Assembly (NCBI GenBank): GCA_943789005.1
Contig: CALSSL010000001.1
Location: 512,511-576,510, forward strand
Source: an uncultured SAR86 cluster bacterium
GTDB taxonomy: Bacteria; Pseudomonadota; Gammaproteobacteria; Magnimaribacterales; D2472
Length of the DNA stretch: 64,000 nt
Direction of reading: 5' to 3'
How positions within the stretch are numbered: the stretch's first letter is position 1; every line of letters starts with the position of its first letter. A program made the position numbers and the translations under genes. The notes under the pieces were generated by a model. It made no database searches and had not been told where the DNA came from. It saw only the letters and a program-made list of their open reading frames with translations. Of this stretch, positions 131 through 40,485 are shown one piece after another.

Positions 131-1957
131 ATGTGTGGAATTATAGCTGCGGCATCAACTAGAAATGTCGGAAAACTACTAGTTCAAGGGCTCCATAAAA
201 TGGAGTACAGAGGATATGATTCTGCTGGAATTGCGCTCCATCAAGAAAACTCTATTGCACACCTTCGAACTGTAGGTAAAGTTCAGTTGCTTGAAGAGAA
301 GATGATTTCAGAAAAACCAAAAAGTAAACTTGGCATAGCTCATACAAGATGGGCAACGCACGGAGAGCCTTCAGAAGCAAATGCGCATCCCCACAAATCA
401 AAAGATTCTGTTTATATAGTTCACAACGGTATTATTGAAAATTATGTGGAGCTAAGAGAATCTTTGATTGCTGATGGATACGATTTCACATCTCAAACAG
501 ACTCTGAACTCATAGCTCATTTGCTTGATCTTTTTATTAACAAAGGTAATTCAATGATTGATGCTATGTATCTTGCCAAAGAAAAATTAGATGGAGCATA
601 TGCTATAGCAGCAATCAATCTAAACGATAATTCAAATTTAGTTGTAGCAAGAAACAAGTCACCACTTTTAATCGGGCTTGGAACAGATGAAATGTTTGCA
701 GCCTCAGACCCTCTTGCAATAGCCCAGCTCACCAACAACTTTATTTTTTTAGAAGACGGTGATGTTGCATCCATATCGGCAGAAGAATACAAAATTTACG
801 ATTCAACAAAAGCAGAAGTCATTAGAGACGTAACCCATATAGATATTTCAAGCCAAGCCACTTCTAAAGGTGATTTTAGACACTTTATGGAAAAAGAAAT
901 CTATGAGCAGCCCGAAGCAGTGTCAAACACCATAGATGGAAGAATTGGCGGTGAAGATGTTTTAGATAATATTTTTGGTCTTGGCTCTAGCGATCTTTTT
1001 TCAAAAGTTAAACGTATTCAAATCGTTGCATGCGGAACTAGCCTTCACGCAGGAAGAGTTGCTGCTAATTGGTTTTCATCAATAGCTGAGATACCTTGCC
1101 AAATAGATTATGCAAGTGAGTATAGGTATAGAAACCCTCATGTAGACAAGAACTCATTACTCATAACCATTTCTCAATCTGGAGAGACAGCAGACACACT
1201 AGCAGCACTTAATTATGCAAAGGAAAAAGATTATTTAGCCTCTTTAACTATTTGTAATGTTCCAACAAGCTCTCTTGCAAGAGAATCAGATTTTTCATTA
1301 TTTACTAATGCCGGTCCTGAGATAGGAGTTGCTTCAACAAAAGCTTTTACAACTCAATTAGCCGGACTAATGTTGCTTGCACTTTCATTGGCTAAAAGCA
1401 GAAATTTAAACCCACGTTTAAGAGGAAGAATTGTTAAAGCACTAAGGCTTCTTCCGGAAACCATTGCAGAAGCACTTCTTTGTAAAGAAAAAATGATTGA
1501 AATAGCCCCAAGTATCGCTAACAAAGATAATGCATTATTTTTAGGAAGAGGTATCTTTTATCCCATTGCAAAGGAGGGCGCCTTAAAGCTTAAAGAAATT
1601 TCCTACATACATGCTGAGGCTTATCCAGCTGGCGAATTGAAACATGGCCCACTAGCACTTATTGATGAAAATATGCCCGTTATAGCTTTAGCTCCAGAAA
1701 GTGAAATAGCAGAAAAACTAATTTCAAATCTTGAGGAAGTAAAAGCGAGGGGCGGCACTTTATATGTTTTTGCAGACCCATCAGTCAATATGGATGTGAA
1801 GGCAGGACATTTAATTCATATGCCAAAATGTGATTTCTTTATGACTCCAATTGTTTATAACATCCCGCTTCAAATACTGTCTTATGAAGTTGCTCTATTA
1901 AGAGGGACCGATATTGATCAGCCAAGGAATCTAGCCAAATCAGTAACTGTTGAATAA
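131..1957 (+). CDS. glmS: Glutamine--fructose-6-phosphate aminotransferase
   Basis: 608 aa. N-terminal MCGI (Cys nucleophile of class II amidotransferases), two SIS-type halves, C-terminal KSVTVE. Confidence 0.97.
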   Translation: MCGIIAAASTRNVGKLLVQGLHKMEYRGYDSAGIALHQENSIAHLRTVGKVQLLEEKMISEKPKSKLGIAHTRWATHGEPSEANAHPHKSKDSVYIVHNGIIENYVELRESLIADGYDFTSQTDSELIAHLLDLFINKGNSMIDAMYLAKEKLDGAYAIAAINLNDNSNLVVARNKSPLLIGLGTDEMFAASDPLAIAQLTNNFIFLEDGDVASISAEEYKIYDSTKAEVIRDVTHIDISSQATSKGDFRHFMEKEIYEQPEAVSNTIDGRIGGEDVLDNIFGLGSSDLFSKVKRIQIVACGTSLHAGRVAANWFSSIAEIPCQIDYASEYRYRNPHVDKNSLLITISQSGETADTLAALNYAKEKDYLASLTICNVPTSSLARESDFSLFTNAGPEIGVASTKAFTTQLAGLMLLALSLAKSRNLNPRLRGRIVKALRLLPETIAEALLCKEKMIEIAPSIANKDNALFLGRGIFYPIAKEGALKLKEISYIHAEAYPAGELKHGPLALIDENMPVIALAPESEIAEKLISNLEEVKARGGTLYVFADPSVNMDVKAGHLIHMPKCDFFMTPIVYNIPLQILSYEVALLRGTDIDQPRNLAKSVTVE

Positions 1958-1963
1958 ACCTGA

Positions 1964-2551
1964 ATGTCAGTCAGTAAAGAGAAATTCAAAAAAATAAAAT
2001 CTAAATATCAGTATCTTTCAAGTTGGGCAATTTGGGCAACCGAAGGCGAAACTCCTAAAAGCAATGTGGGCGACTTAACTATCCTTGATCCAGATTGTAA
2101 TAAAAATCTTTTAAGTCAACTTAATACTGAAGTAGTCTTTGTTGCTTTGAATATCTCAAGAGGGGACATAAAAACCCCATTTGGCAATTTTCATGACCAT
2201 AGACCTGCTGCAACAGATTTCAAGATTAGGTTTGCTTTTAAGGACACCCCTTTTTGGGGAGGGTATATGACAGATATCATTAAAGACTTTGAAGAAAAGA
2301 TTTCTGGAAAGGTAAAAGACTATCTATCTAAGAATAGAGATTTTGAAAAACAAAATGTCGATATTTTTTTGGAGGAGTTAAATGACATTGGCGCAAAAAA
2401 CCCTGTTTTGATTGCTTTTGGTAACGAGGTTTTTAATATTTTAAATAGACACTTAAAAGATAGGTTTAAAATCATTAAAGTACCTCACTATGCAAACTAC
2501 ACAAACAAGGAAAAATATAGAGAACAAATTAAAACTATACTTAAGTTTTAA
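1964..2551 (+). CDS. Hypothetical protein, weakly UDG-superfamily-like
   Basis: 195-aa ORF starting 6 nt after the glmS stop. VFVALNISRG and VPHYANY loosely resemble UDG-fold motifs A and B. No confident family. Confidence 0.55.
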   Translation: MSVSKEKFKKIKSKYQYLSSWAIWATEGETPKSNVGDLTILDPDCNKNLLSQLNTEVVFVALNISRGDIKTPFGNFHDHRPAATDFKIRFAFKDTPFWGGYMTDIIKDFEEKISGKVKDYLSKNRDFEKQNVDIFLEELNDIGAKNPVLIAFGNEVFNILNRHLKDRFKIIKVPHYANYTNKEKYREQIKTILKF

Positions 2552-3363
2552 CTCATTATTAATTCTGCAATTAGTGGCGAGTGATCGCTGATTTTTCTTG
2601 TTCTAGGTTCTTGATCATAAAACACATTATCAACCCTCATATTAGATGTGCAGAAAATATGATCATATCTTCTGCCAACACCCTTATTAGTAAACCAACT
2701 AAAAGACTCTTTCTCATATCTATGTTGAGATCTAAATACATCCTTCATGTCTAAATCTGTATGATTTTCAATAATGTTTCTTTCAGCAAGATCCCATCTT
2801 TCGCCAGTACACTCATCCTTCCACTTGGGATTAACAGCAATTCTTACTTTCCCATTTGAGTTTACTTTTTGACCCCAGGTTATAACTTCACCAGACATCA
2901 ACTCTTGTTTTGGTGAATTAAAGTCGCCAGTCAGTATCATATTCTTAACACCCCTTTTTGATAGAAATTTATACAGACCTTCAAAGTGTTCAACTTTAAT
3001 AACTCCATTCGATGACCCTGGTGGAACATGGGTAGTGTGAACTTCATAATCCTGTATAGAACAAGACAAAACCCTTTCAGGAAAAGGAACTGGAGCAAAC
3101 TCCTCTATATTAATAATAGAACTTTTAGAGATTATCATTTGACCATATTTTCTTTTATTCACTAATACAGACTTATCTTTAACCAAGTCGAAAGAACATA
3201 TAACACTCTCATTGGCAAAATAGTCTTTTATAAAACCCTCTGAACCTAAAAGAACTTCTTGAAGTGTGATTATGTCAAAGTCTCCCTTTCTCAAATAATC
3301 ACATTGTTCAGTTAAATTTTTTTTATTTGTTCGTGAATTTAAATTCCAAGTTATTACTCTCAT
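2548..3363 (-). CDS. Endonuclease/exonuclease/phosphatase (EEP, ExoIII/DNase I-like) family protein
   Basis: 271 aa. MRVITWNLN...LQEV at the N-terminus, GDFNS, and SDHSPL near the C-terminus are EEP-fold motifs. 4-nt convergent overlap with 1964-2551. Confidence 0.8.
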   Translation of the reverse strand: MRVITWNLNSRTNKKNLTEQCDYLRKGDFDIITLQEVLLGSEGFIKDYFANESVICSFDLVKDKSVLVNKRKYGQMIISKSSIINIEEFAPVPFPERVLSCSIQDYEVHTTHVPPGSSNGVIKVEHFEGLYKFLSKRGVKNMILTGDFNSPKQELMSGEVITWGQKVNSNGKVRIAVNPKWKDECTGERWDLAERNIIENHTDLDMKDVFRSQHRYEKESFSWFTNKGVGRRYDHIFCTSNMRVDNVFYDQEPRTRKISDHSPLIAELIMS

Positions 3364-3420
3364 AAAAACATTTTAACTTATGCGATAATTAATAAATGTT
3401 AAATATTGGGTGGGTTAAGA

Positions 3421-3552
3421 ACACTCCGTTACGGTGGAGTAAATTTGAGACGTCCTTCGTTTTAACCTCGCATTCTGCGGGGGTTTCAAGAATCACCAAA
3501 AATTAAACCCGGTAAAAACTACCTTAAAAAGGTCACCTATTTTTTCGTGTTA
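3421..3552. repeat. Structured intergenic repeat, copy 1 (left arm + spacer + diverged right arm)
   Basis: ACGGTGGAGTAAATTTGAGACGTCCTTCGTTTTAACCTCGCATTCTGCGGGGGTTTCAAGAATCAC aligns with 5817-5880. AGGTCACCTATTTTTTCGTG (3530-3549) aligns with the right-arm end AGGTTCACTTATTCTTTTGCTG (5906-5927). Confidence 0.7.
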
Positions 3553-3641
3553 GCAGAAGTCATAAGACATTTATAAGAACGATTGCGACTTCTTATGTGT
3601 ATTAATAGGACATTTATGAGGAGTTATGGCAGAATATTTTA

Positions 3642-4091
3642 ATGAACATGTACAACATTCAAGATAAAGAAATGATAGAAGGATATGTTTCTTTAGATGG
3701 CGACCAAGTAACAGCAGCTATTTTTAGCTCACTATTACCTGACCCCAAAGGCGACTATTATCTGGGTGCTTATTACGGTTACGCAGGAGGGGGTGTAAAT
3801 GATGGAGGGTTTTTTAGCATTGATATAGAAAATTCATTTCACAAACACATTGATTTTGATGAGTTTGATGAGATAAGAAGTCAAAATATAAAACAACACA
3901 GTGTTTTGGAAACCTTAATGCAGAGAATATGGCATTACATTGAAGAAGATGATGGTATTTTACAATTAACAAGCAGTGGTCTAAAACTTAAAAAGAACGA
4001 AGATGGAATATGGATTTCAGATAATTTTGATGGAGACTTTTTATCTGAAATTTCTGACCAGTGGTCTATTTCATTAAAGTTTTATAACTAG
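3642..4091 (+). CDS. Hypothetical acidic cytoplasmic protein (cassette ORF)
   Basis: 149-aa ORF bracketed by repeat copies 1 and 2. No recognisable motif. Confidence 0.5.
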   Translation: MNMYNIQDKEMIEGYVSLDGDQVTAAIFSSLLPDPKGDYYLGAYYGYAGGGVNDGGFFSIDIENSFHKHIDFDEFDEIRSQNIKQHSVLETLMQRIWHYIEEDDGILQLTSSGLKLKKNEDGIWISDNFDGDFLSEISDQWSISLKFYN

Positions 4092-4132
4092 AATTAAAAG
4101 ATTTAATAGGAATTATGATCAAATCATGCAAT

Positions 4133-4207
4133 CAATTCTCAAACTCTTCAAACACTGCAGAAATAGTGGAGAATGAAAGTCGAGGTTCACTTACTCCGTT
4201 ACAGTCG
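4133..4207. repeat. Structured intergenic repeat, copy 2 (spacer end + right arm)
   Basis: CAGAAATAGTGGAGAATGAAAGTCGAGGTTCACTTACTCC (4158-4197) matches CAGAAATAGTGGAAAATGAAAGTTGAGGTTCACTTATTC (5881-5919) with a few mismatches. Confidence 0.7.
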
Positions 4208-4255
4208 AATGATAAGAAGTCTTCGGCCCTCGACGGCGCACTAGGGAGTTGACGT

Positions 4256-5059
4256 CTGTTTAAGCACATTCACATTGTTGCCTGCTCGCCGCGATCCGGT
4301 ACTACTCTCTTGCACGAGGCGATGGTCACCTGTTTTCGGACAAACAAGCATTATGACCATGAGATTCGCTTTCACCTCGTAACCGCAAAAAACAACGATG
4401 TGGTTATCACGAAACGACCCAGAGATACGTTGTACATGCCAGGAGTCATCGACGATCCTAATCTCTATGTCATTTACGTAACGCGCGATCCGCGTGATGT
4501 CATCGTTAGCCGGCACGGTAAGAGCGAGGATATGTACTACTCGAACATTAGGCTTTGGCGTGAATTGCATGCCTGTGCACGCTCATTGTTCGGCCACGAT
4601 CGTTTTCTCAATATCCGGTACGAGGATTTCGTAAATAACCCTGACGCCACACAAAGCCAAATCACTGCAAAATTTCCATGGCTTGAGAAACAACACAAAT
4701 TTTCTGAGTACCATGAACACGCGCAAGTGTCTGAAAAGTCAAAGGTTGCAATGCGTGGCGTCCGTCCTATTGGACCGACCAGTGTCGGTGTCTGGCGAAA
4801 ACATCTCGGTCGCATCGTTCAACAGCAGGCAATCCACGGCACAATGACACCAGATCTGGTCGGTTGTGGATACGAATCATCGCCGGATTGGGAAGTTGTT
4901 CTGGACGGCGTTTTACCGGATAAATCTAACAGTTGGTATCCGGAGAAAAAACGTTTTTGGCAGAGAATTTCGCAATCCATTGATGCTTCGAGAAAAATAG
5001 CTATCTATCGGCGCAAGAAAGGACTTAGTCGAATCAGCAGAGCAACCAATGATCGTTAG
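4256..5059 (+). CDS. PAPS-dependent sulfotransferase (start moved upstream of the ORF-track start)
   Basis: RDPRDVIVS is the 3'-phosphate-binding motif. The same frame upstream of 4310 reads FKHIHIVACSPRSGTTLL, the 5'-phosphosulfate-binding P-loop. The frame is closed by TGA at 4250-4252. The only start-like codon ahead of the P-loop is CTG 4256, 7 nt after TAGGGAG (4242-4248). Confidence 0.75.
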   Translation: MFKHIHIVACSPRSGTTLLHEAMVTCFRTNKHYDHEIRFHLVTAKNNDVVITKRPRDTLYMPGVIDDPNLYVIYVTRDPRDVIVSRHGKSEDMYYSNIRLWRELHACARSLFGHDRFLNIRYEDFVNNPDATQSQITAKFPWLEKQHKFSEYHEHAQVSEKSKVAMRGVRPIGPTSVGVWRKHLGRIVQQQAIHGTMTPDLVGCGYESSPDWEVVLDGVLPDKSNSWYPEKKRFWQRISQSIDASRKIAIYRRKKGLSRISRATNDR

Positions 5060-5747
5060 CCATGCAAAGAAGTTTATTTTCGTAAAGACCCGTAAAACCT
5101 CGGGCACAAGCATGGAGGTTAGTCTGAGCCAAGTCTGTGGTCCCGATGACATCATCACTCCGATATCGTTTGAAGACGAACTCGTCAGGCTGGACATGGG
5201 CGGCACGTTACCTCAGAACTACGCTGGTCTTGGAGAGCAGCGATATCGCGATATGATAAAGGCACGCAAGATGAAATTTTTACGCGCCAGACGCCGTGGC
5301 AAGTTTTTCAATCATATGCCGGCTGTTGCGATTCGCGAGCACGTCGGCAAAAAAACTTACGATGATTACTTCACTTTTTCGATCGAAAGGCATCCGTACG
5401 AAAAGGTTGCATCACATATCTATTATCATGCGCGCGGAAAAAAGAACTGGAGTTTTGACAAGGAGCTTGAGCGTGTTCTGAAGAAGAAGTATTACGTCAA
5501 TTACCCAACCTATTCAGACGGTGAAAAACCTATTGTCGATTTCATTGTCAATTTTGACAATATGCAGGAAGACCTCACGACCCTCGGCGACAGGCTTGAA
5601 TTTGATATTGTCGCGCACTATCCACAAACCAAACACGAATTCCGAACTAACAGAAGGCCTGCATCCGAGCTGTTGTCGCAGAAAGTAAAGGACCAAATAT
5701 ATAAGAACTGCAGGATCGAGTTCGATGCAATGGGTTACGAGCGTTAG
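5049..5747 (+). CDS. Sulfotransferase family protein (family-2-like)
   Basis: 232 aa. N-terminal FVKTRKTSGTS resembles the PAPS-binding loop. The ATG overlaps the upstream stop (ATGATCGTTAG), which suggests translational coupling. Confidence 0.7.
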   Translation: MIVSHAKKFIFVKTRKTSGTSMEVSLSQVCGPDDIITPISFEDELVRLDMGGTLPQNYAGLGEQRYRDMIKARKMKFLRARRRGKFFNHMPAVAIREHVGKKTYDDYFTFSIERHPYEKVASHIYYHARGKKNWSFDKELERVLKKKYYVNYPTYSDGEKPIVDFIVNFDNMQEDLTTLGDRLEFDIVAHYPQTKHEFRTNRRPASELLSQKVKDQIYKNCRIEFDAMGYER

Positions 5748-5752
5748 CCATG

Positions 5753-5927
5753 CACAAATAGTGGAAAATCAAAACATTGCTACGGCTACTCTGCTACTGT
5801 TGAACTCAGTCAGTGACGGTGGAGTAAGTTTATAACGACTTTCATTTTAATCCCGCATTCTTAGAGGGTTTTAAAAATCTCAGAAATAGTGGAAAATGAA
5901 AGTTGAGGTTCACTTATTCTTTTGCTG
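5753..5927. repeat. Structured intergenic repeat, copy 3 (partial unit plus the most complete unit)
   Basis: In the complete unit 5812-5927, ACTTTCATTTT (5838-5848) is the perfect reverse complement of AAAATGAAAGT (5893-5903). The outer arms GAGTAAGT and ACTTATTC pair at 7 of 8 positions, around a spacer of about 45 nt. 5753-5772 repeats CACAAATAGTGGAAAATCAA. Confidence 0.8.
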
Positions 5928-5950
5928 TAAAGTAGATTTGGTATAAACAT

Positions 5951-6679
5951 ATGAATAATCTAGTTGACGTTTTTTTAAATATTAGAAATAGTAAGTTTTT
6001 TAACACCCTAGTAATTTTTATAATAATAGCTTCAGCTATATATGCAGGAGTAAGCTCTTATAATCTTCCAGAAAATTACCTCAAGCTTTTAATCGCATTT
6101 GACTATGTAATTACTATTTTTTTTGTATTTGAGATACTAGTTAGAATTGTATCTGAAAAATCATTTGGTAAGTTCTTTAAAGATGGGTGGAACATTTTTG
6201 ATTTTATTATTGTGGCTTTAAGTCTTATTCCCGTTGGAGCGGGTTCTGCAATATTTGTTGCAAGGCTGCTTAGGATTATTAGAGTTCTTAGAATTATAAC
6301 TGTCATTCCAGCATTCAGAAAAATTATAGACTCATTAATTATGTCATTGCCCAGAGTTGGATTCGTTGCCCTTTTGTTATTTATATTTACATATATTTTT
6401 GCGGTAATTGGCACTATGTTATTTGCTGATGTTGATTCGTTAAAGTGGGGAAATGTTGGCAGGGCATTGCTGACACTGGCGCAAGTAGCAACATTTGATG
6501 ATTGGGGGGCAATTATGGGGCGAGTTCTTCAAACCAACCAATTTGCTTGGATTTATTTTGTTTTCTTTATAATTATTAATGCTGTTATTCTTCTCAACAT
6601 GGTCATTGGGGTCATTGTTGATGTAATGATAAGCGAAAACAACAAACCTTCTATCAAAGAAACAAGATATGAAAAATAA
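5951..6679 (+). CDS. Voltage-gated ion channel, BacNav/NaChBac-like single-domain 6-TM type
   Basis: 242 aa with six hydrophobic segments. S4 has Arg at every third residue (RLLRIIRVLRIITVIPAFRK). The pore loop LTLAQVATFDDWGAIM aligns to the BacNav FQVMTLESW filter. Confidence 0.85.
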   Translation: MNNLVDVFLNIRNSKFFNTLVIFIIIASAIYAGVSSYNLPENYLKLLIAFDYVITIFFVFEILVRIVSEKSFGKFFKDGWNIFDFIIVALSLIPVGAGSAIFVARLLRIIRVLRIITVIPAFRKIIDSLIMSLPRVGFVALLLFIFTYIFAVIGTMLFADVDSLKWGNVGRALLTLAQVATFDDWGAIMGRVLQTNQFAWIYFVFFIIINAVILLNMVIGVIVDVMISENNKPSIKETRYEK

Positions 6680-7130
6680 ATTTATTGTAATGTTTGTTTT
6701 TTTATTGTCATCTTTTACAAAGGCGGATGATCAACGTTTTGCCATCGACGCTTTATTGGATGGTCTTCACCAAGACGCACACAGGGGGAATTTTCAAACC
6801 TATTTTGCCCGTTATAGTTCGGACGCTATTTTTTTAGGAACAGACAAAACAGAGCGCTGGACCATAGAAGAGTTTAAGAACTATGCCAAACCAGCCTTTG
6901 CAGACGGTCATGGATGGACCTATAAAGTTGTTGAGAGAAACTGGGCAGGAGAGAGTAATACAAGATGGTTCGATGAAATTCTGTTCAATGAAAAACTAGG
7001 TCATTGCAGAGGCACTGGTGTTGTACAACTGAAAAATGGTAAATGGAAAATAGCTCACTATGCTTTGACAATGCTTGTACCTAATGCCATCGCCGCAGAG
7101 GTAGGTGAGCAAACCCAAGAAGCTGACTAA
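6669..7130 (+). CDS. Secreted NTF2-like (SnoaL/DUF4440-type) protein
   Basis: 153 aa with an N-terminal signal-like segment MKNKFIVMFVFLLSSFTKA. NTF2-fold-like core. 11-nt overlap with the channel gene. Confidence 0.55.
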   Translation: MKNKFIVMFVFLLSSFTKADDQRFAIDALLDGLHQDAHRGNFQTYFARYSSDAIFLGTDKTERWTIEEFKNYAKPAFADGHGWTYKVVERNWAGESNTRWFDEILFNEKLGHCRGTGVVQLKNGKWKIAHYALTMLVPNAIAAEVGEQTQEAD

Positions 7131-7147
7131 ACATAAAATAAAAAATT

Positions 7148-7189
7148 CTGCTTCGGATACTCTGCCACAGTGGAGAAAATTAACGGCAG
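7148..7189. repeat. Structured intergenic repeat, copy 4 (short left-side remnant)
   Basis: 7148-7171 (CTGCTTCGGATACTCTGCCACAGT) matches 5777-5800 (TTGCTACGGCTACTCTGCTACTGT) at 19 of 24 positions. It then continues GGAGAAAATTAACG, like the left arm GGAGTAAGTTTATAACG. It ends in a T-run and may double as a terminator. Confidence 0.5.
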
Positions 7190-7232
7190 TTTTTTAAAAT
7201 TTTAAGATGCTAAAACAACTAAACATTATCCC

Positions 7233-7445
7233 CTAAGGGAGTTTAAAGATATCCTCAACCGAACAATCTAAAATCTTTGCTATTCGTAAAGCAAGCACTG
7301 TGGAAGGAACATAAATTCCATTTTCAATAGCGTTGATACTTTTTCTTGAAACGTCTGCTTGGTCTGACAATTCTTGCTGAGTGAAACCAGCAGACTTTCT
7401 TAGATCTTCAAGGTTGTTTAGTAGTTTTTTATGATTTTTACCCAA
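7233..7445 (-). CDS. XRE/Cro-type helix-turn-helix transcriptional regulator
   Basis: 70 aa. FTQQELSDQADVSRKSINAIENG is a classic HTH_3 motif. Confidence 0.85.
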   Translation of the reverse strand: MGKNHKKLLNNLEDLRKSAGFTQQELSDQADVSRKSINAIENGIYVPSTVLALRIAKILDCSVEDIFKLP

Positions 7446-7447
7446 AA

Positions 7448-7882
7448 CTATTTCTTTTCAAATTGCTCTACTGCTTTATTGATTTCTTCACTTTCTATTG
7501 GATAAAGATACCCAGCAATCATCAACCCAATACCAATTGCGGAAACTAATAACCCCACTCCAAAAATGGCACCAACACCTAAACCAAACTTACCTAGCAA
7601 AAATAGACCAATACCTACTCCAATTGTAATAACACCATTTCTTCTATAATCGGTCGGTGATTTTCTTTCAACTAAACTCTCAAGAATTTCTTTCAAATCA
7701 TCAGGATTATTTATGTTTTTTGATATTGTGATGAGTGTGTCATATCTGCTCTTCTTATTTTTAGAATCATAAAAAAAGATAATTAATACAATTAAAACAG
7801 GCAATAGCACGCTAACATAACCAATCCCAAGTGCTAATGCTCCATTCAAAGAATCCATAAATCCATTCATTATTTTCTCCAT
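7448..7882 (-). CDS. Small multi-pass membrane protein, co-operonic with the XRE regulator
   Basis: 144 aa with one N-terminal and two C-terminal glycine-rich TM segments. It ends 2 nt before the HTH gene starts. Confidence 0.6.
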   Translation of the reverse strand: MEKIMNGFMDSLNGALALGIGYVSVLLPVLIVLIIFFYDSKNKKSRYDTLITISKNINNPDDLKEILESLVERKSPTDYRRNGVITIGVGIGLFLLGKFGLGVGAIFGVGLLVSAIGIGLMIAGYLYPIESEEINKAVEQFEKK

Positions 7883-7891
7883 ACTAAAAAA

Positions 7892-7946
7892 TTAAATGTA
7901 ACGTAAACTTACCATAAATTTTATGAGAAGCAAAGGTTACATTTAA
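7892..7946. promoter_or_regulatory. Candidate operator: 11-bp perfect inverted repeat upstream of the membrane-XRE operon
   Basis: TTAAATGTAAC (7892-7902) and GTTACATTTAA (7936-7946) are exact reverse complements separated by 33 nt. They lie in the 5' region of the minus-strand operon. Confidence 0.45.
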
Positions 7947-7995
7947 ATTTTTATTTATATTGTCAATATTGGTTAACTGGGTTTAGAATGGAATT

Positions 7996-10221: not shown

Positions 10222-10310
10222 ATCTTAGATAATTTAGGAAAGCTTAGAGGACGTTGATATCCAAATAAAAGTAGAAGTTAAAAATAAAGACAAAGAAGAG
10301 GATAAATAAA

Positions 10311-40146: not shown

Positions 40147-40485
40147 TTAGAAAATTTTTTTTATTAGAAAGTGATATGTTGCAACAACCAAGTCGTCTTT
40201 TAAAGATTCACCACCTTTAACCCTATAATCTTTTACATTTCCAATTCTTCTTCCAGAACCAATACTTTGTCCGTCATACACATAACCATTTTTTACGTTA
40301 CCAACTTTTTTTCCAGTACCAATACTTTGTCCGTCATATATCACGCCATTTTTTACATTACCAACTTTTTTTCCAGTACCAATACTTTGTCCGTCATATA
40401 TAACGTCATTTTTTATATTTCCAATTTTTCTTCCAGACCCAGGGCTTGATCCGTCAAAAAATACACCATTTTTAAAATTCGCCAT
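40147..40485 (-). CDS. Tandem 20-aa Gly-rich repeat protein
   Basis: 112 aa with five consecutive units of the type GNVKNGVIYDGQSIGTGKKV, followed by a short C-terminal tail. Confidence 0.7.
   Translation of the reverse strand: MANFKNGVFFDGSSPGSGRKIGNIKNDVIYDGQSIGTGKKVGNVKNGVIYDGQSIGTGKKVGNVKNGYVYDGQSIGSGRRIGNVKDYRVKGGESLKDDLVVATYHFLIKKIF
40231..40485. repeat. 60-bp coding tandem repeat (3 near-identical units plus 2 diverged flanking units)
   Basis: Units 40261-40320, 40321-40380 and 40381-40440 all begin AATACTTTGTCCGTCATA and differ at only a few positions. Confidence 0.9.

Follow-up and report, generated by a model that had tools for sequence, protein, structure and literature searches.

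Here, we describe an array of gene cassettes anchored on the 3' end of glmS in a 64-kb stretch of DNA from the SAR86 cluster (the whole stretch is hereafter called the window), and in particular a GC-rich cassette that carries two overlapping genes, ST1 and ST2, for sulfotransferases of the type that uses 3'-phosphoadenosine 5'-phosphosulfate (PAPS). SAR86 bacteria are among the most abundant bacterial groups of the surface ocean and have only recently been cultured. At source, the proteins of the window carry the name "Gammaproteobacteria bacterium" or "SAR86 cluster bacterium", and its GlmS shares 90% identity with the protein of the SAR86 single-cell genome SCGC AAA076-P13. A sequence-only reading of the same DNA had proposed that positions 4225-5752 are a recently acquired foreign insert between repeat elements, encoding two translationally coupled sulfotransferases. 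That interpretation holds in part: the insert is one cassette among several, and the claims on the repeats, the start of ST1, the glycosyltransferase and the origin of the gene overlap are revised below.

A GC-rich insert downstream of glmS

In a 300-nt sliding window, the GC content climbs from ~0.31 to 0.48-0.50 over ~4210 to ~5750 and then drops back. The 1535-bp insert has a GC content of 0.472, compared with a mean of 0.341 (standard deviation 0.020, maximum 0.390) for all other 1535-bp windows of the 64 kb. GC at third codon positions (GC3) is 0.49 in ST1 and 0.54 in ST2 against 0.252 ± 0.033 in 66 background open reading frames (ORFs; z = 7.2 and 8.7, respectively), CGN codons occur at 64 per 1000 compared with 5 per 1000 in the background, and CCG, TCG, GTC and ATC codons are enriched as well. 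The sharp shift at both edges and the deviant codon usage, both part of the sequence-only reading, are thus borne out by computation. The limits defined by homology, 4232-5747 for the cargo and 4203-5797 for the whole cassette, lie near those proposed earlier and fall on the repeats. The two genes overlap by 11 nt, with the ATG of ST2 located 8 nt before the TAG of ST1 (5057-5059), so that the proposed stop/start overlap is present and translational coupling is plausible. We consider it highly likely that the insert is a real, horizontally acquired two-gene sulfotransferase cassette in SAR86 (Magnimaribacterales).

The repeats at its edges were placed correctly by the sequence-only reading, but they are not generic repeat elements: they are recombination junctions of an array anchored on the glmS end. 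GlmS terminates in the residues S V T V E followed by a stop (TCA GTA ACT GTT GAA TAA), and in the window as well as at all related loci, each cassette boundary has the form TCN GTN AC^N GTN GAR TRR, where the caret marks the boundary. The junction copies vary almost only synonymously (for example, ACG GTG GAG TAA, ACA GTC GAA TGA and ACT GTT GAA TAA). The core GTNACNGTNGARTRR is present in four exact copies in the window (1943, 3428, 4198 and 5813), all within 1943-5827, with 0.04 expected by chance, and degenerate copies are found at ~5797, 5925 and 7168. The left junction of the sulfotransferase cassette reads ...CTCCGTTAC^AGTCGAATGA... and the right junction ...CTCTGCTAC^NGTNGA.... Across loci, the sequence to the left of AC moves with the upstream cassette and the sequence to the right with the downstream cassette; the left end of the sulfotransferase cassette is joined to four types of upstream arm, and its right end to three types of downstream half. 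Because the two parts separate at AC, the unit that adjoins glmS supplies the last codons of this essential enzyme. In shortened variants of the cassette, exchange occurred at an internal CGAC^GG inside the leader (L045, L046, L048). Searches of the whole window against Rfam at gathering thresholds, and of 1900-7300 at E ≤ 1, gave no match, so the repeats are not a known RNA, and ARAGORN found no tRNA or tmRNA target in the window.

Large serine recombinases are expected to exchange strands at the central dinucleotide of a dyad-symmetric site. The commonest (type I) junction has the dyad centre GTT-AC-GGT, and the mapped crossover is its central dinucleotide. When the left half of the empty unit (Table 1) is joined to the right half at 4150-4200, 16/24 positions match the dyad, compared with 7.7 in shuffles, again with AC at the centre. 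The sulfotransferase cassette is less symmetric, its ends in the window giving 7/24 matches when joined end to end. Its right half there is variant A; variant B, which occurs in L002, L003, L006 and most species representatives, gives 12/24 matches in combination with the long left half.

Table 1. Array features and sulfotransferase genes downstream of glmS in the window (a caret marks a cassette boundary)
Feature	Position	Strand	Description
glmS	131..1957	+	608 aa; Pfam GATase/SIS on identical genes; core motif 1943-1957
First array junction	within last codons of glmS	+	glmS end TCA GTA AC^T GTT GAA TAA
Cassette A	1948..3432		ORF195 and endonuclease/exonuclease/phosphatase gene; recombinase-proximal arm at end
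ORF195	1964-2551	+	cargo of cassette A
Endonuclease/exonuclease/phosphatase gene	2548-3363	-	cargo of cassette A (Pfam)
Terminal arm of cassette A	3391-3432		ATTGGGTGGGTTAAGAACACTCCGTTAC; resembles att arm beside L134 recombinase gene (L134 type)
Cassette B	3433..4202	+	type I left half 3433-3646, ORF149 3642-4091, type I right half 4115-4202
Sulfotransferase cassette	4203..5797	+	junctions exactly after AC on both sides; 99.7-99.9% identical in L003 and L006, where the contexts differ
Left-half remnant	4203..4231	+	AGTCGAATGA; V-E-stop of recoded GlmS end
Foreign cargo	4232..5747	+	leader, ST1 and ST2; blastn to L125
Shine-Dalgarno-like AGGGAG	4243..4248	+	7 nt before ST1 start; kept in array copies and L125
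ST1	4256..5059	+	267 codons, CTG start; Sulfotransfer_3/1 type; P-loop PRSGTT 4289-4306; RDPRD motif
ST2	5049..5747	+	232 aa, ATG start; Sulfotransfer_2-like; KTRKTSGTS loop, ERHPYEKVxS motif
Right half, variant A	5748..5797	+	CATGCACAAATAGTGGAAAATCAAAACATTGCTACGGCTACTCTGCTAC^
Cargo-less 20-bp unit	5798..5817	+	TGTTGAACTCAGTCAGTGAC; junction halves only
Empty unit	5818..5925	+	type I left half joined straight to type I right half
Next cassette	5926..7168	+	ion channel 5951-6679 and SnoaL_3 protein 6669-7130 (Pfam)

Large serine recombinases of related elements

One related glmS array (L020) encodes a protein of 552 aa that contains Resolvase, Recombinase and Zn_ribbon domains and whose best NCBIfam matches, XisF and CcrA/B/C, are far below the cutoffs (60 vs 900 bits for Ccr). 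Known phage and plasmid relatives of this protein are at most 28% identical to it, and a metagenome scan combined with a homologue search found the family on many short marine contigs. In 11/11 loci, that is, in all cases with downstream sequence to inspect (L020, L118-L120, L134-L140), the recombinase gene ends ~30-40 nt before an arm and the AC core; L020 and L140 are related arrays, L118-L120 and L134-L139 elements. Two subfamilies, 44% identical to each other, each have their own arm type, and one recombinase right end abuts five different downstream sequences.

In one of these contigs (L134, 1-16130), a 7,143-bp unit that encodes a large serine recombinase, a 127-aa ORF, a rolling-circle Rep-like gene and an 893-aa ORF is present in 2.2 head-to-tail copies. 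The junction between its right and left ends, TTTGGGTGGGGTAAGA-ACAATCCGTTAC^AGTGGAGTAG-TCTTACCCCACCCAAA, is a perfect 16-bp inverted repeat around a mimic of the glmS end and reflects either a circular episome or a tandem integration; with AC at the centre (TTTGGGTGGGGTAAGAACAATCCGTTAC^AGTGGAGTAGTCTTACCCCACCCAAA), it yields 19/24 dyad matches, compared with 8.1 ± 1.7 in shuffles. In a second contig (L140), the recombinase gene is followed by a core, a methyltransferase/helicase cassette, a further core and the sulfotransferase cassette.

Two further observations concern the contents of these loci. The L140 cassette at 2980-7018 encodes a 615-aa N6/N4 DNA methyltransferase and a 734-aa DEAD/ResIII helicase, a defence-like cargo. 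In L020, a DNA polymerase B of the protein-primed type (PF03175), split into ORFs of 221 and 411 aa, lies beside the recombinase gene in the glmS array (1178-3068). Scans of IMG/VR with ST2 and with the recombinase gave no match and thus no evidence of a viral vehicle.

Spread among SAR86 and the likely donor

In related contigs, the atp operon and glmU precede glmS, and the content downstream of glmS varies from contig to contig, with variants that include a cadherin-like gene, MAPEG, a cupin, methyltransferases, a phytase with a TonB receptor, an ion channel with a SnoaL protein, and others. Among 20 related contigs compared by BLAST, the sulfotransferase block is 99.7-99.9% identical in L003 and L006, where both neighbours differ, and it is missing from 5/10 contigs retrieved via the adjacent ion-channel gene, a pattern of presence and absence that agrees with the proposed acquisition. 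Altogether, the same sulfotransferase sequence has at least five different upstream and at least five different downstream neighbours. In a scan of one genome per species, at least eight representatives of SAR86 species had ST2 at 96-99% amino acid identity, the next-best match being a metagenome-assembled genome of Woeseiaceae at 68% and all others reaching no more than 42%. In seven of the SAR86 genomes, the pair lies within a glmS array, and the GlmS proteins are 62-90% identical to that of the window. The cargo is 97.7-99.5% identical at the nucleotide level in SAR86 genomes in which glmS is only 66-80% identical, as expected of the recent acquisition that had been proposed.

The claim of a foreign, higher-GC origin likewise stands. 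In a genome of 49% GC (L125-L127), ST1, a 108-nt spacer and ST2 follow one another without any GC step at the genes; by blastn, this sequence (L125) is 84% identical to 4232-5045 and 83% identical to 5049-5747. The match takes in the leader, GACGGCGCAC(C/T)AGGGAGTTGACG(C/T)CTG, and the CTG start after an in-frame TGA, so the foreign cargo comprises 4232-5747. Compared with this donor-type arrangement, the stop/start overlap of the SAR86 genes results from a deletion of ~105 nt. More distant relatives (68-70% amino acid identity) were found in genomes of 56-66% GC, Woeseiaceae among them, where they occupy four independent contexts. A conserved cluster of ST1 (259 aa), a gene resembling glycosyltransferase family 2 (GT2-like, 294 aa) and ST2 (232 aa) is present in three of these, and the fourth (L031) has ST1 and the GT2-like gene with no ST2; a divergently transcribed Sulfotransfer_4 gene is found near all four, and a diacylglycerol kinase gene in two. 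As judged by these sequence comparisons, the pair comes from a higher-GC gammaproteobacterial lineage and has recently spread among very divergent members of SAR86.

The sulfotransferases ST1 and ST2

ST1 matches PF13469 (31.1 bits, cutoff 27) and PF00685 (25.4 bits, cutoff 22), and contains the motifs CSPRSGTT and TRDPRDVIVS, with PAPS-binding residues that are invariant or nearly so among 27 homologues. An AlphaFold 2 model (AF2; mean predicted local distance difference test score, pLDDT, 80) produced 75 matches in the PDB at E ≤ 0.001, and 50/50 listed matches have the sulfotransferase fold, most of them solved with PAPS or its desulfated product PAP. By Pfam profile, motifs and predicted fold, ST1 is a PAPS-type sulfotransferase. 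The ST2 protein of the window has no Pfam or NCBIfam match and stays below the cutoff of PF03567, the family carried by its homologues at 34-41% identity. Its invariant residues are K13, T14, K16, T20, S21, R114, P116 and S122, and its model (pLDDT 90.6) has PAPS-sulfotransferase-fold proteins as 50/50 listed PDB matches, albeit at template modelling (TM) scores of only 0.4-0.5. Two distinct PAPS-type sulfotransferases, as read earlier from the motifs, are thus recognized. No assignment to characterised enzymes at the sequence level was found for either protein, PDB sequence searches with ST1, ST2 and the GT2-like protein gave marginal matches only, and NCBIfam has no model for these three.

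The ST1 frame opens past a TGA at 4250, and its P-loop precedes the first ATG, GTG or TTG, as a result of which gene callers shorten the protein to 207 or 245 aa. The start position is nevertheless fixed across the family: it is ATG in Woeseiaceae, at the kdkA locus and in L044, GTG in L031, CTG in the donor-type genome and most cassettes, and ATA in L048. A full-length ST1 with an ATG start (P0025, 267 aa) is encoded at a SAR86 locus outside the array. We infer that ST1 of the window is translated from a weak but real CTG start; the missing canonical start bears on expression of the gene and not on its homology. Truncation of ST1 at its 5' end by the insert edge was considered and rejected, since the leader and the CTG are native to the donor-type genome.

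A model for the array and the evidence against it

Taken together, these observations suggest that 4203-5797 is a non-autonomous gene cassette in a site-specifically integrated array at the 3' end of glmS. At its start, each cassette has a recoded, synonymous version of the final GlmS codons and their stop (NGT NGA RTRR), and at its end ...TCN GTN AC, so that the cassette next to glmS completes the essential protein. Strand exchange would take place at the invariant AC, in the centre of a dyad-symmetric site, and would be catalysed by a large serine recombinase encoded on related autonomous elements outside the window. The cargo pair derives from higher-GC gammaproteobacteria and has spread recently across divergent SAR86, and ST1 and ST2, acting with KdkA and a GT2-like glycosyltransferase whose genes lie elsewhere or in neighbouring cassettes, would sulfate a glycoconjugate of the cell envelope and so change the cell surface. 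The sequence comparisons establish the composition, boundaries, mobility and foreign origin of the cassette, the anatomy of its junctions, and the link of the recombinase gene to the junction site, whereas the action of the recombinase, translation from the CTG and the acceptor are inferred. We assign this explanation as a whole, that is, a mobile array cassette stacked by a recombinase and carrying foreign sulfotransferase cargo, a probability of roughly 70%.

Several observations count against it. With respect to mobility, tblastn found no large serine recombinase gene in the 64-kb window, and none lies beside most arrays; the conserved junction halves would equally allow homologous recombination; and the dyad score of the window cassette ends (7/24) is at the level of shuffled sequences. 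Given these dyad-less ends and the 73-bp deletion in the left half, the window copy may be immobile, and it is probably a fixed passenger that could now move only with its neighbours or by homologous recombination. With respect to expression, ST1 has no canonical start upstream of the P-loop, the sole plausible one being the CTG at 4256, a codon that is usually weak; a promoter and terminator scan did not rise above chance and gave no signal upstream of ST1; and, at dS of at most 0.07 between copies of the pair, estimates of selection are noisy and some close pairs have dN/dS (the ratio of nonsynonymous to synonymous substitution rates) above 1. With respect to function, the window cassette has no glycosyltransferase, the solved structures nearest to ST1 are of protein-tyrosine rather than carbohydrate sulfotransferases, and SAR86 genomes have been reported to lack genes for sulfate assimilation (PMC3358033; bioRxiv 10.1101/2024.03.17.584874), which puts the supply of PAPS in SAR86 in question.

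Acceptor of the sulfotransferases

The sequence-only reading noted that no cognate glycosyltransferase gene accompanies the pair, which is true of the window locus but not of its relatives, where a GT2-like gene lies between or before the two genes. At the SAR86 locus outside the array, the order is malate synthase G, 4HBT, GT2-like (301 aa), kdkA, ST1, ST2, SnoaL_2 and a TonB receptor, and the GC-rich part consists of the sulfotransferase pair only (0.47 vs 0.36-0.39). The kdkA product matches Kdo kinase at the equivalog level (NF002475, 292 bits, cutoff 142), and the 301-aa GT2-like protein is 51% identical to that of the Woeseiaceae operon. Upstream of the pair, kdkA is found with three types of junction: as an adjacent cassette with a core site between the two (L132), as a fusion that keeps 14 nt of the leader within a four-gene cassette bounded by core sites (L010, L040), and as a fusion that makes an ATG overlapping the kdkA stop (L021, L038, L039). 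The copy outside the array is without the donor leader and keeps the cassette right half up to AC, so the cassette form is probably ancestral in SAR86. The protein clusters comprise 7,620 members for GT2-like, 2,812 for ST1 and 2,232 for ST2, and GT2-like and kdkA also occur together without the pair. The identical 301-aa GT2-like protein and kdkA are found in at least four unrelated contexts (L128-L133), so that they themselves belong to the flexible gene pool.

Envelope sulfotransferases are known in bacteria, LpsS and NodH of Sinorhizobium meliloti among them. The present pair, like these enzymes and the Woeseiaceae-type ST1–GT2-like–ST2 clusters (with Sulfotransfer_4), combines a PAPS-type fold and motifs with linkage to glycosyltransferase or envelope genes, although the window cassette, unlike the Woeseiaceae-type clusters, has lost the glycosyltransferase and holds two sulfotransferases only. 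By gene context, we tentatively suggest that the pair could sulfate an envelope glycoconjugate, for which the inner core of the lipopolysaccharide (LPS) is the likeliest candidate because of the repeated fusion to kdkA and the GT2-like gene. Hypervariable islands usually vary the cell surface, and LPS-core modification would fit that role.

Alternatively, the two enzymes might act on a peptide or a small molecule, such as tyrosine or a secondary metabolite. The best structural matches of ST1 are the tyrosylprotein sulfotransferases TPST1/2 (TM 0.55-0.59), followed by small-molecule sulfotransferases, and the absence of a glycosyltransferase from the window cassette points the same way; identity to these structures, however, is only 10-17%. 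A GT2-like gene within the pair or next to it in five independent contexts, the recurrent upstream fusion of kdkA in SAR86, and neighbours that include an Acyl_transf_3/SGNH protein and the diacylglycerol kinase argue for the envelope instead, and make a peptide or small-molecule acceptor possible but unlikely.

Coding state of the pair

A further explanation is that the pair is a decaying passenger, with ST1 untranslated and no sulfation phenotype in a host devoid of PAPS synthesis. Such decay would be consistent with the CTG start, the shortened gene calls for ST1, the degraded cassette ends and the reported lack of sulfate assimilation. Yet both ORFs are intact in 20/20 copies of the pair, with no stops or frameshifts, and the P-loop hardly varies; the more diverged pairs of copies have dN/dS of 0.14-0.5, within the limits set by the low dS. 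The CTG and the same Shine-Dalgarno sequence are kept in the donor-type genome at 84% nucleotide identity, relatives have ATG or GTG at this position, and the cassette is found across many SAR86 species at 98-99% identity. Decay, accordingly, appears distinctly unlikely.

Site-specific or homologous exchange

The cassettes could also be shuffled by homologous recombination between copies or halves of the glmS end, for instance after natural transformation, with the recombinase elements as mere passengers. Between cassettes, junction halves share 75-90% identity over 60-220 nt, most arrays carry no recombinase, and the ends of the window cassette are asymmetric, all of which homologous exchange would accommodate. 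It does not readily explain why breakpoints fall exactly at AC even where the flanks share few bases, as in the leader (CGAC^GGCG) and at right halves of three unrelated types, or why the site follows the recombinase gene in 11/11 cases and the two subfamilies go with different arm types. Homologous recombination as the main route is therefore quite improbable, and the anatomy of sites and genes makes a serine-recombinase mechanism the probable basis of the array.

Other units of the array and the remainder of the window

Cassette A is missing from L001, L003 and L006, in which other cassettes follow glmS. Cassette B contains the repeat families D2 and D3 and is flanked by core sites at 3428-3442 and 4198-4212; its type I left half is also found directly after the true glmS end in L001 and other contigs. 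ORF149 and ORF195 have no match in Pfam or NCBIfam, yet they are widely distributed in marine metagenomes, with clusters of 104 and 110 members, respectively. The left-half remnant of the sulfotransferase cassette shows the 73-bp deletion relative to L003, L006, L013 and L019, and its right half is followed in other contigs by three different downstream sequences, each starting after AC. The empty unit ends in a degenerate junction, ...TTTTGC^TGTAAAGTAG, and so does the next cassette, CTCTGCCAC^AGTGGAGAAAA, which is replaced by other genes in L002, L003 and L006.

A 45-aa ORF annotated by gene callers at 4115-4252 extends from the cassette B right half across the core site into the sulfotransferase cassette, and is almost certainly spurious. 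The genes glmS or glmU are split into two or three ORFs in L001, L011, L013 and L014, probably through indel errors of long reads and not as pseudogenes. Outside the array, a ~70-nt intergenic element at 7881-7953, between a DUF6249 gene and a gene for a 260-aa protein, is palindromic, given that alignments with related contigs match it to an inverted copy of itself. Another indel hot spot is located at 10303-10310, where flanking alignments overlap by 8 bp and other contigs contain a glyoxalase gene (279 aa), two small ORFs and a Polyketide_cyc2 gene. On the reverse strand at 40147-40485, a 112-aa ORF is made up of about five repeats of 20 residues each (GNVKNGVIYDGQSIGTGKKV), which corresponds to a 60-nt period in the DNA.

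Comparison with known mobile systems

In its anatomy, the array comes closest to the composite islands of the staphylococcal cassette chromosome (SCC/SCCmec), which employ the large serine recombinases CcrAB or CcrC and target rlmH. Both systems integrate at the 3' end of a housekeeping gene with the frame kept, have direct repeats of the site between tandem units, include many units without a recombinase, carry the recombinase gene inside the element, and hold diverse cargo. They differ in that the target here is glmS and the host a streamlined marine gammaproteobacterium, units span no more than 0.02-3 kb and are thus far smaller, the junction copies vary synonymously, and the recombinase is far from the Ccr models.

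Additive flexible genomic islands and tycheposons (PMC10872708; bioRxiv 10.1101/2020.12.28.424599) likewise occupy hot spots in streamlined ocean hosts, with cassettes separated by repeats of the target 3' end and with integrase-bearing elements next to integrase-less cargo, and a minority of tycheposons use large serine recombinases. Their targets, however, are tRNA or tmRNA genes and their enzymes mostly tyrosine recombinases, whereas the target here is the coding end of a protein gene, so that the array repeats are constrained at the amino acid level. With glmS as the target and no tRNA in the window, the array is not a tycheposon, and the likeness is functional only.

Transport by a Tn7-like transposon or an integron is very improbable. 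The array shares with Tn7 a landing site at the conserved, chromosomally safe glmS 3' end, and with integrons small, mostly promoterless and co-oriented, recombinase-less cassettes between structured repeats that are common to distant hosts. Yet no tns genes, transposase, IntI or tyrosine recombinase are present in any locus, nor are attI or Pc. Tn7 inserts past the stop codon, ~23 bp downstream, via TnsABCD and with a 5-bp duplication, whereas exchange here occurs at AC inside the last glmS codons and no such duplication is seen; and adjacent cassettes each hold one half of the palindromic site, divided at its centre, in contrast to attC, which remains whole at the cassette 3' end with crossover at G^TT (G^TTRRRY). 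Identity with either system was rejected on this anatomy. That the GC anomaly is an assembly chimera, contamination or the outcome of selection on native genes is hardly credible, given the same junctions in > 30 independent contigs and single-cell genomes, a shift in GC3 and not only in amino-acid-driven GC, and the homologue in a 49%-GC genome without a GC step.

Implications for SAR86

Literature searches on SAR86 with glmS or hypervariable regions, and on large serine recombinases with glmS, yielded no description of this array, which apparently is undescribed. As a horizontally acquired accessory gene pair, the insert is ordinary, but its route of arrival is not. SAR86A has been stated to have at least one unassembled hypervariable region, and the principal hypervariable region in SAR86 genomes seems to be the glmS cassette array, for which exchange by a serine recombinase at AC, within the codons for SVTVE and stop, would be a candidate mechanism. 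Gene flow in an abundant ocean lineage thereby becomes directly testable, and the recombinase and its att site form a compact pair whose landing site is conserved in bacteria.

At somewhat less than even odds, SAR86 may possess an undescribed, integron-like exchange platform, in which a divergent clade of large serine recombinases would stack small cassettes with recoded GlmS ends, move near-identical ones across lineages with GlmS identity down to 62% and deliver sulfotransferases to hosts thought unable to activate sulfate. If true, this would imply either an unrecognised source of PAPS or a new route to a sulfated LPS core. The cargo suggests that surface charge may vary at the strain level through sulfation of the LPS core, which would be relevant to interactions with phages and grazers, and it raises the question of where SAR86 obtains its PAPS.

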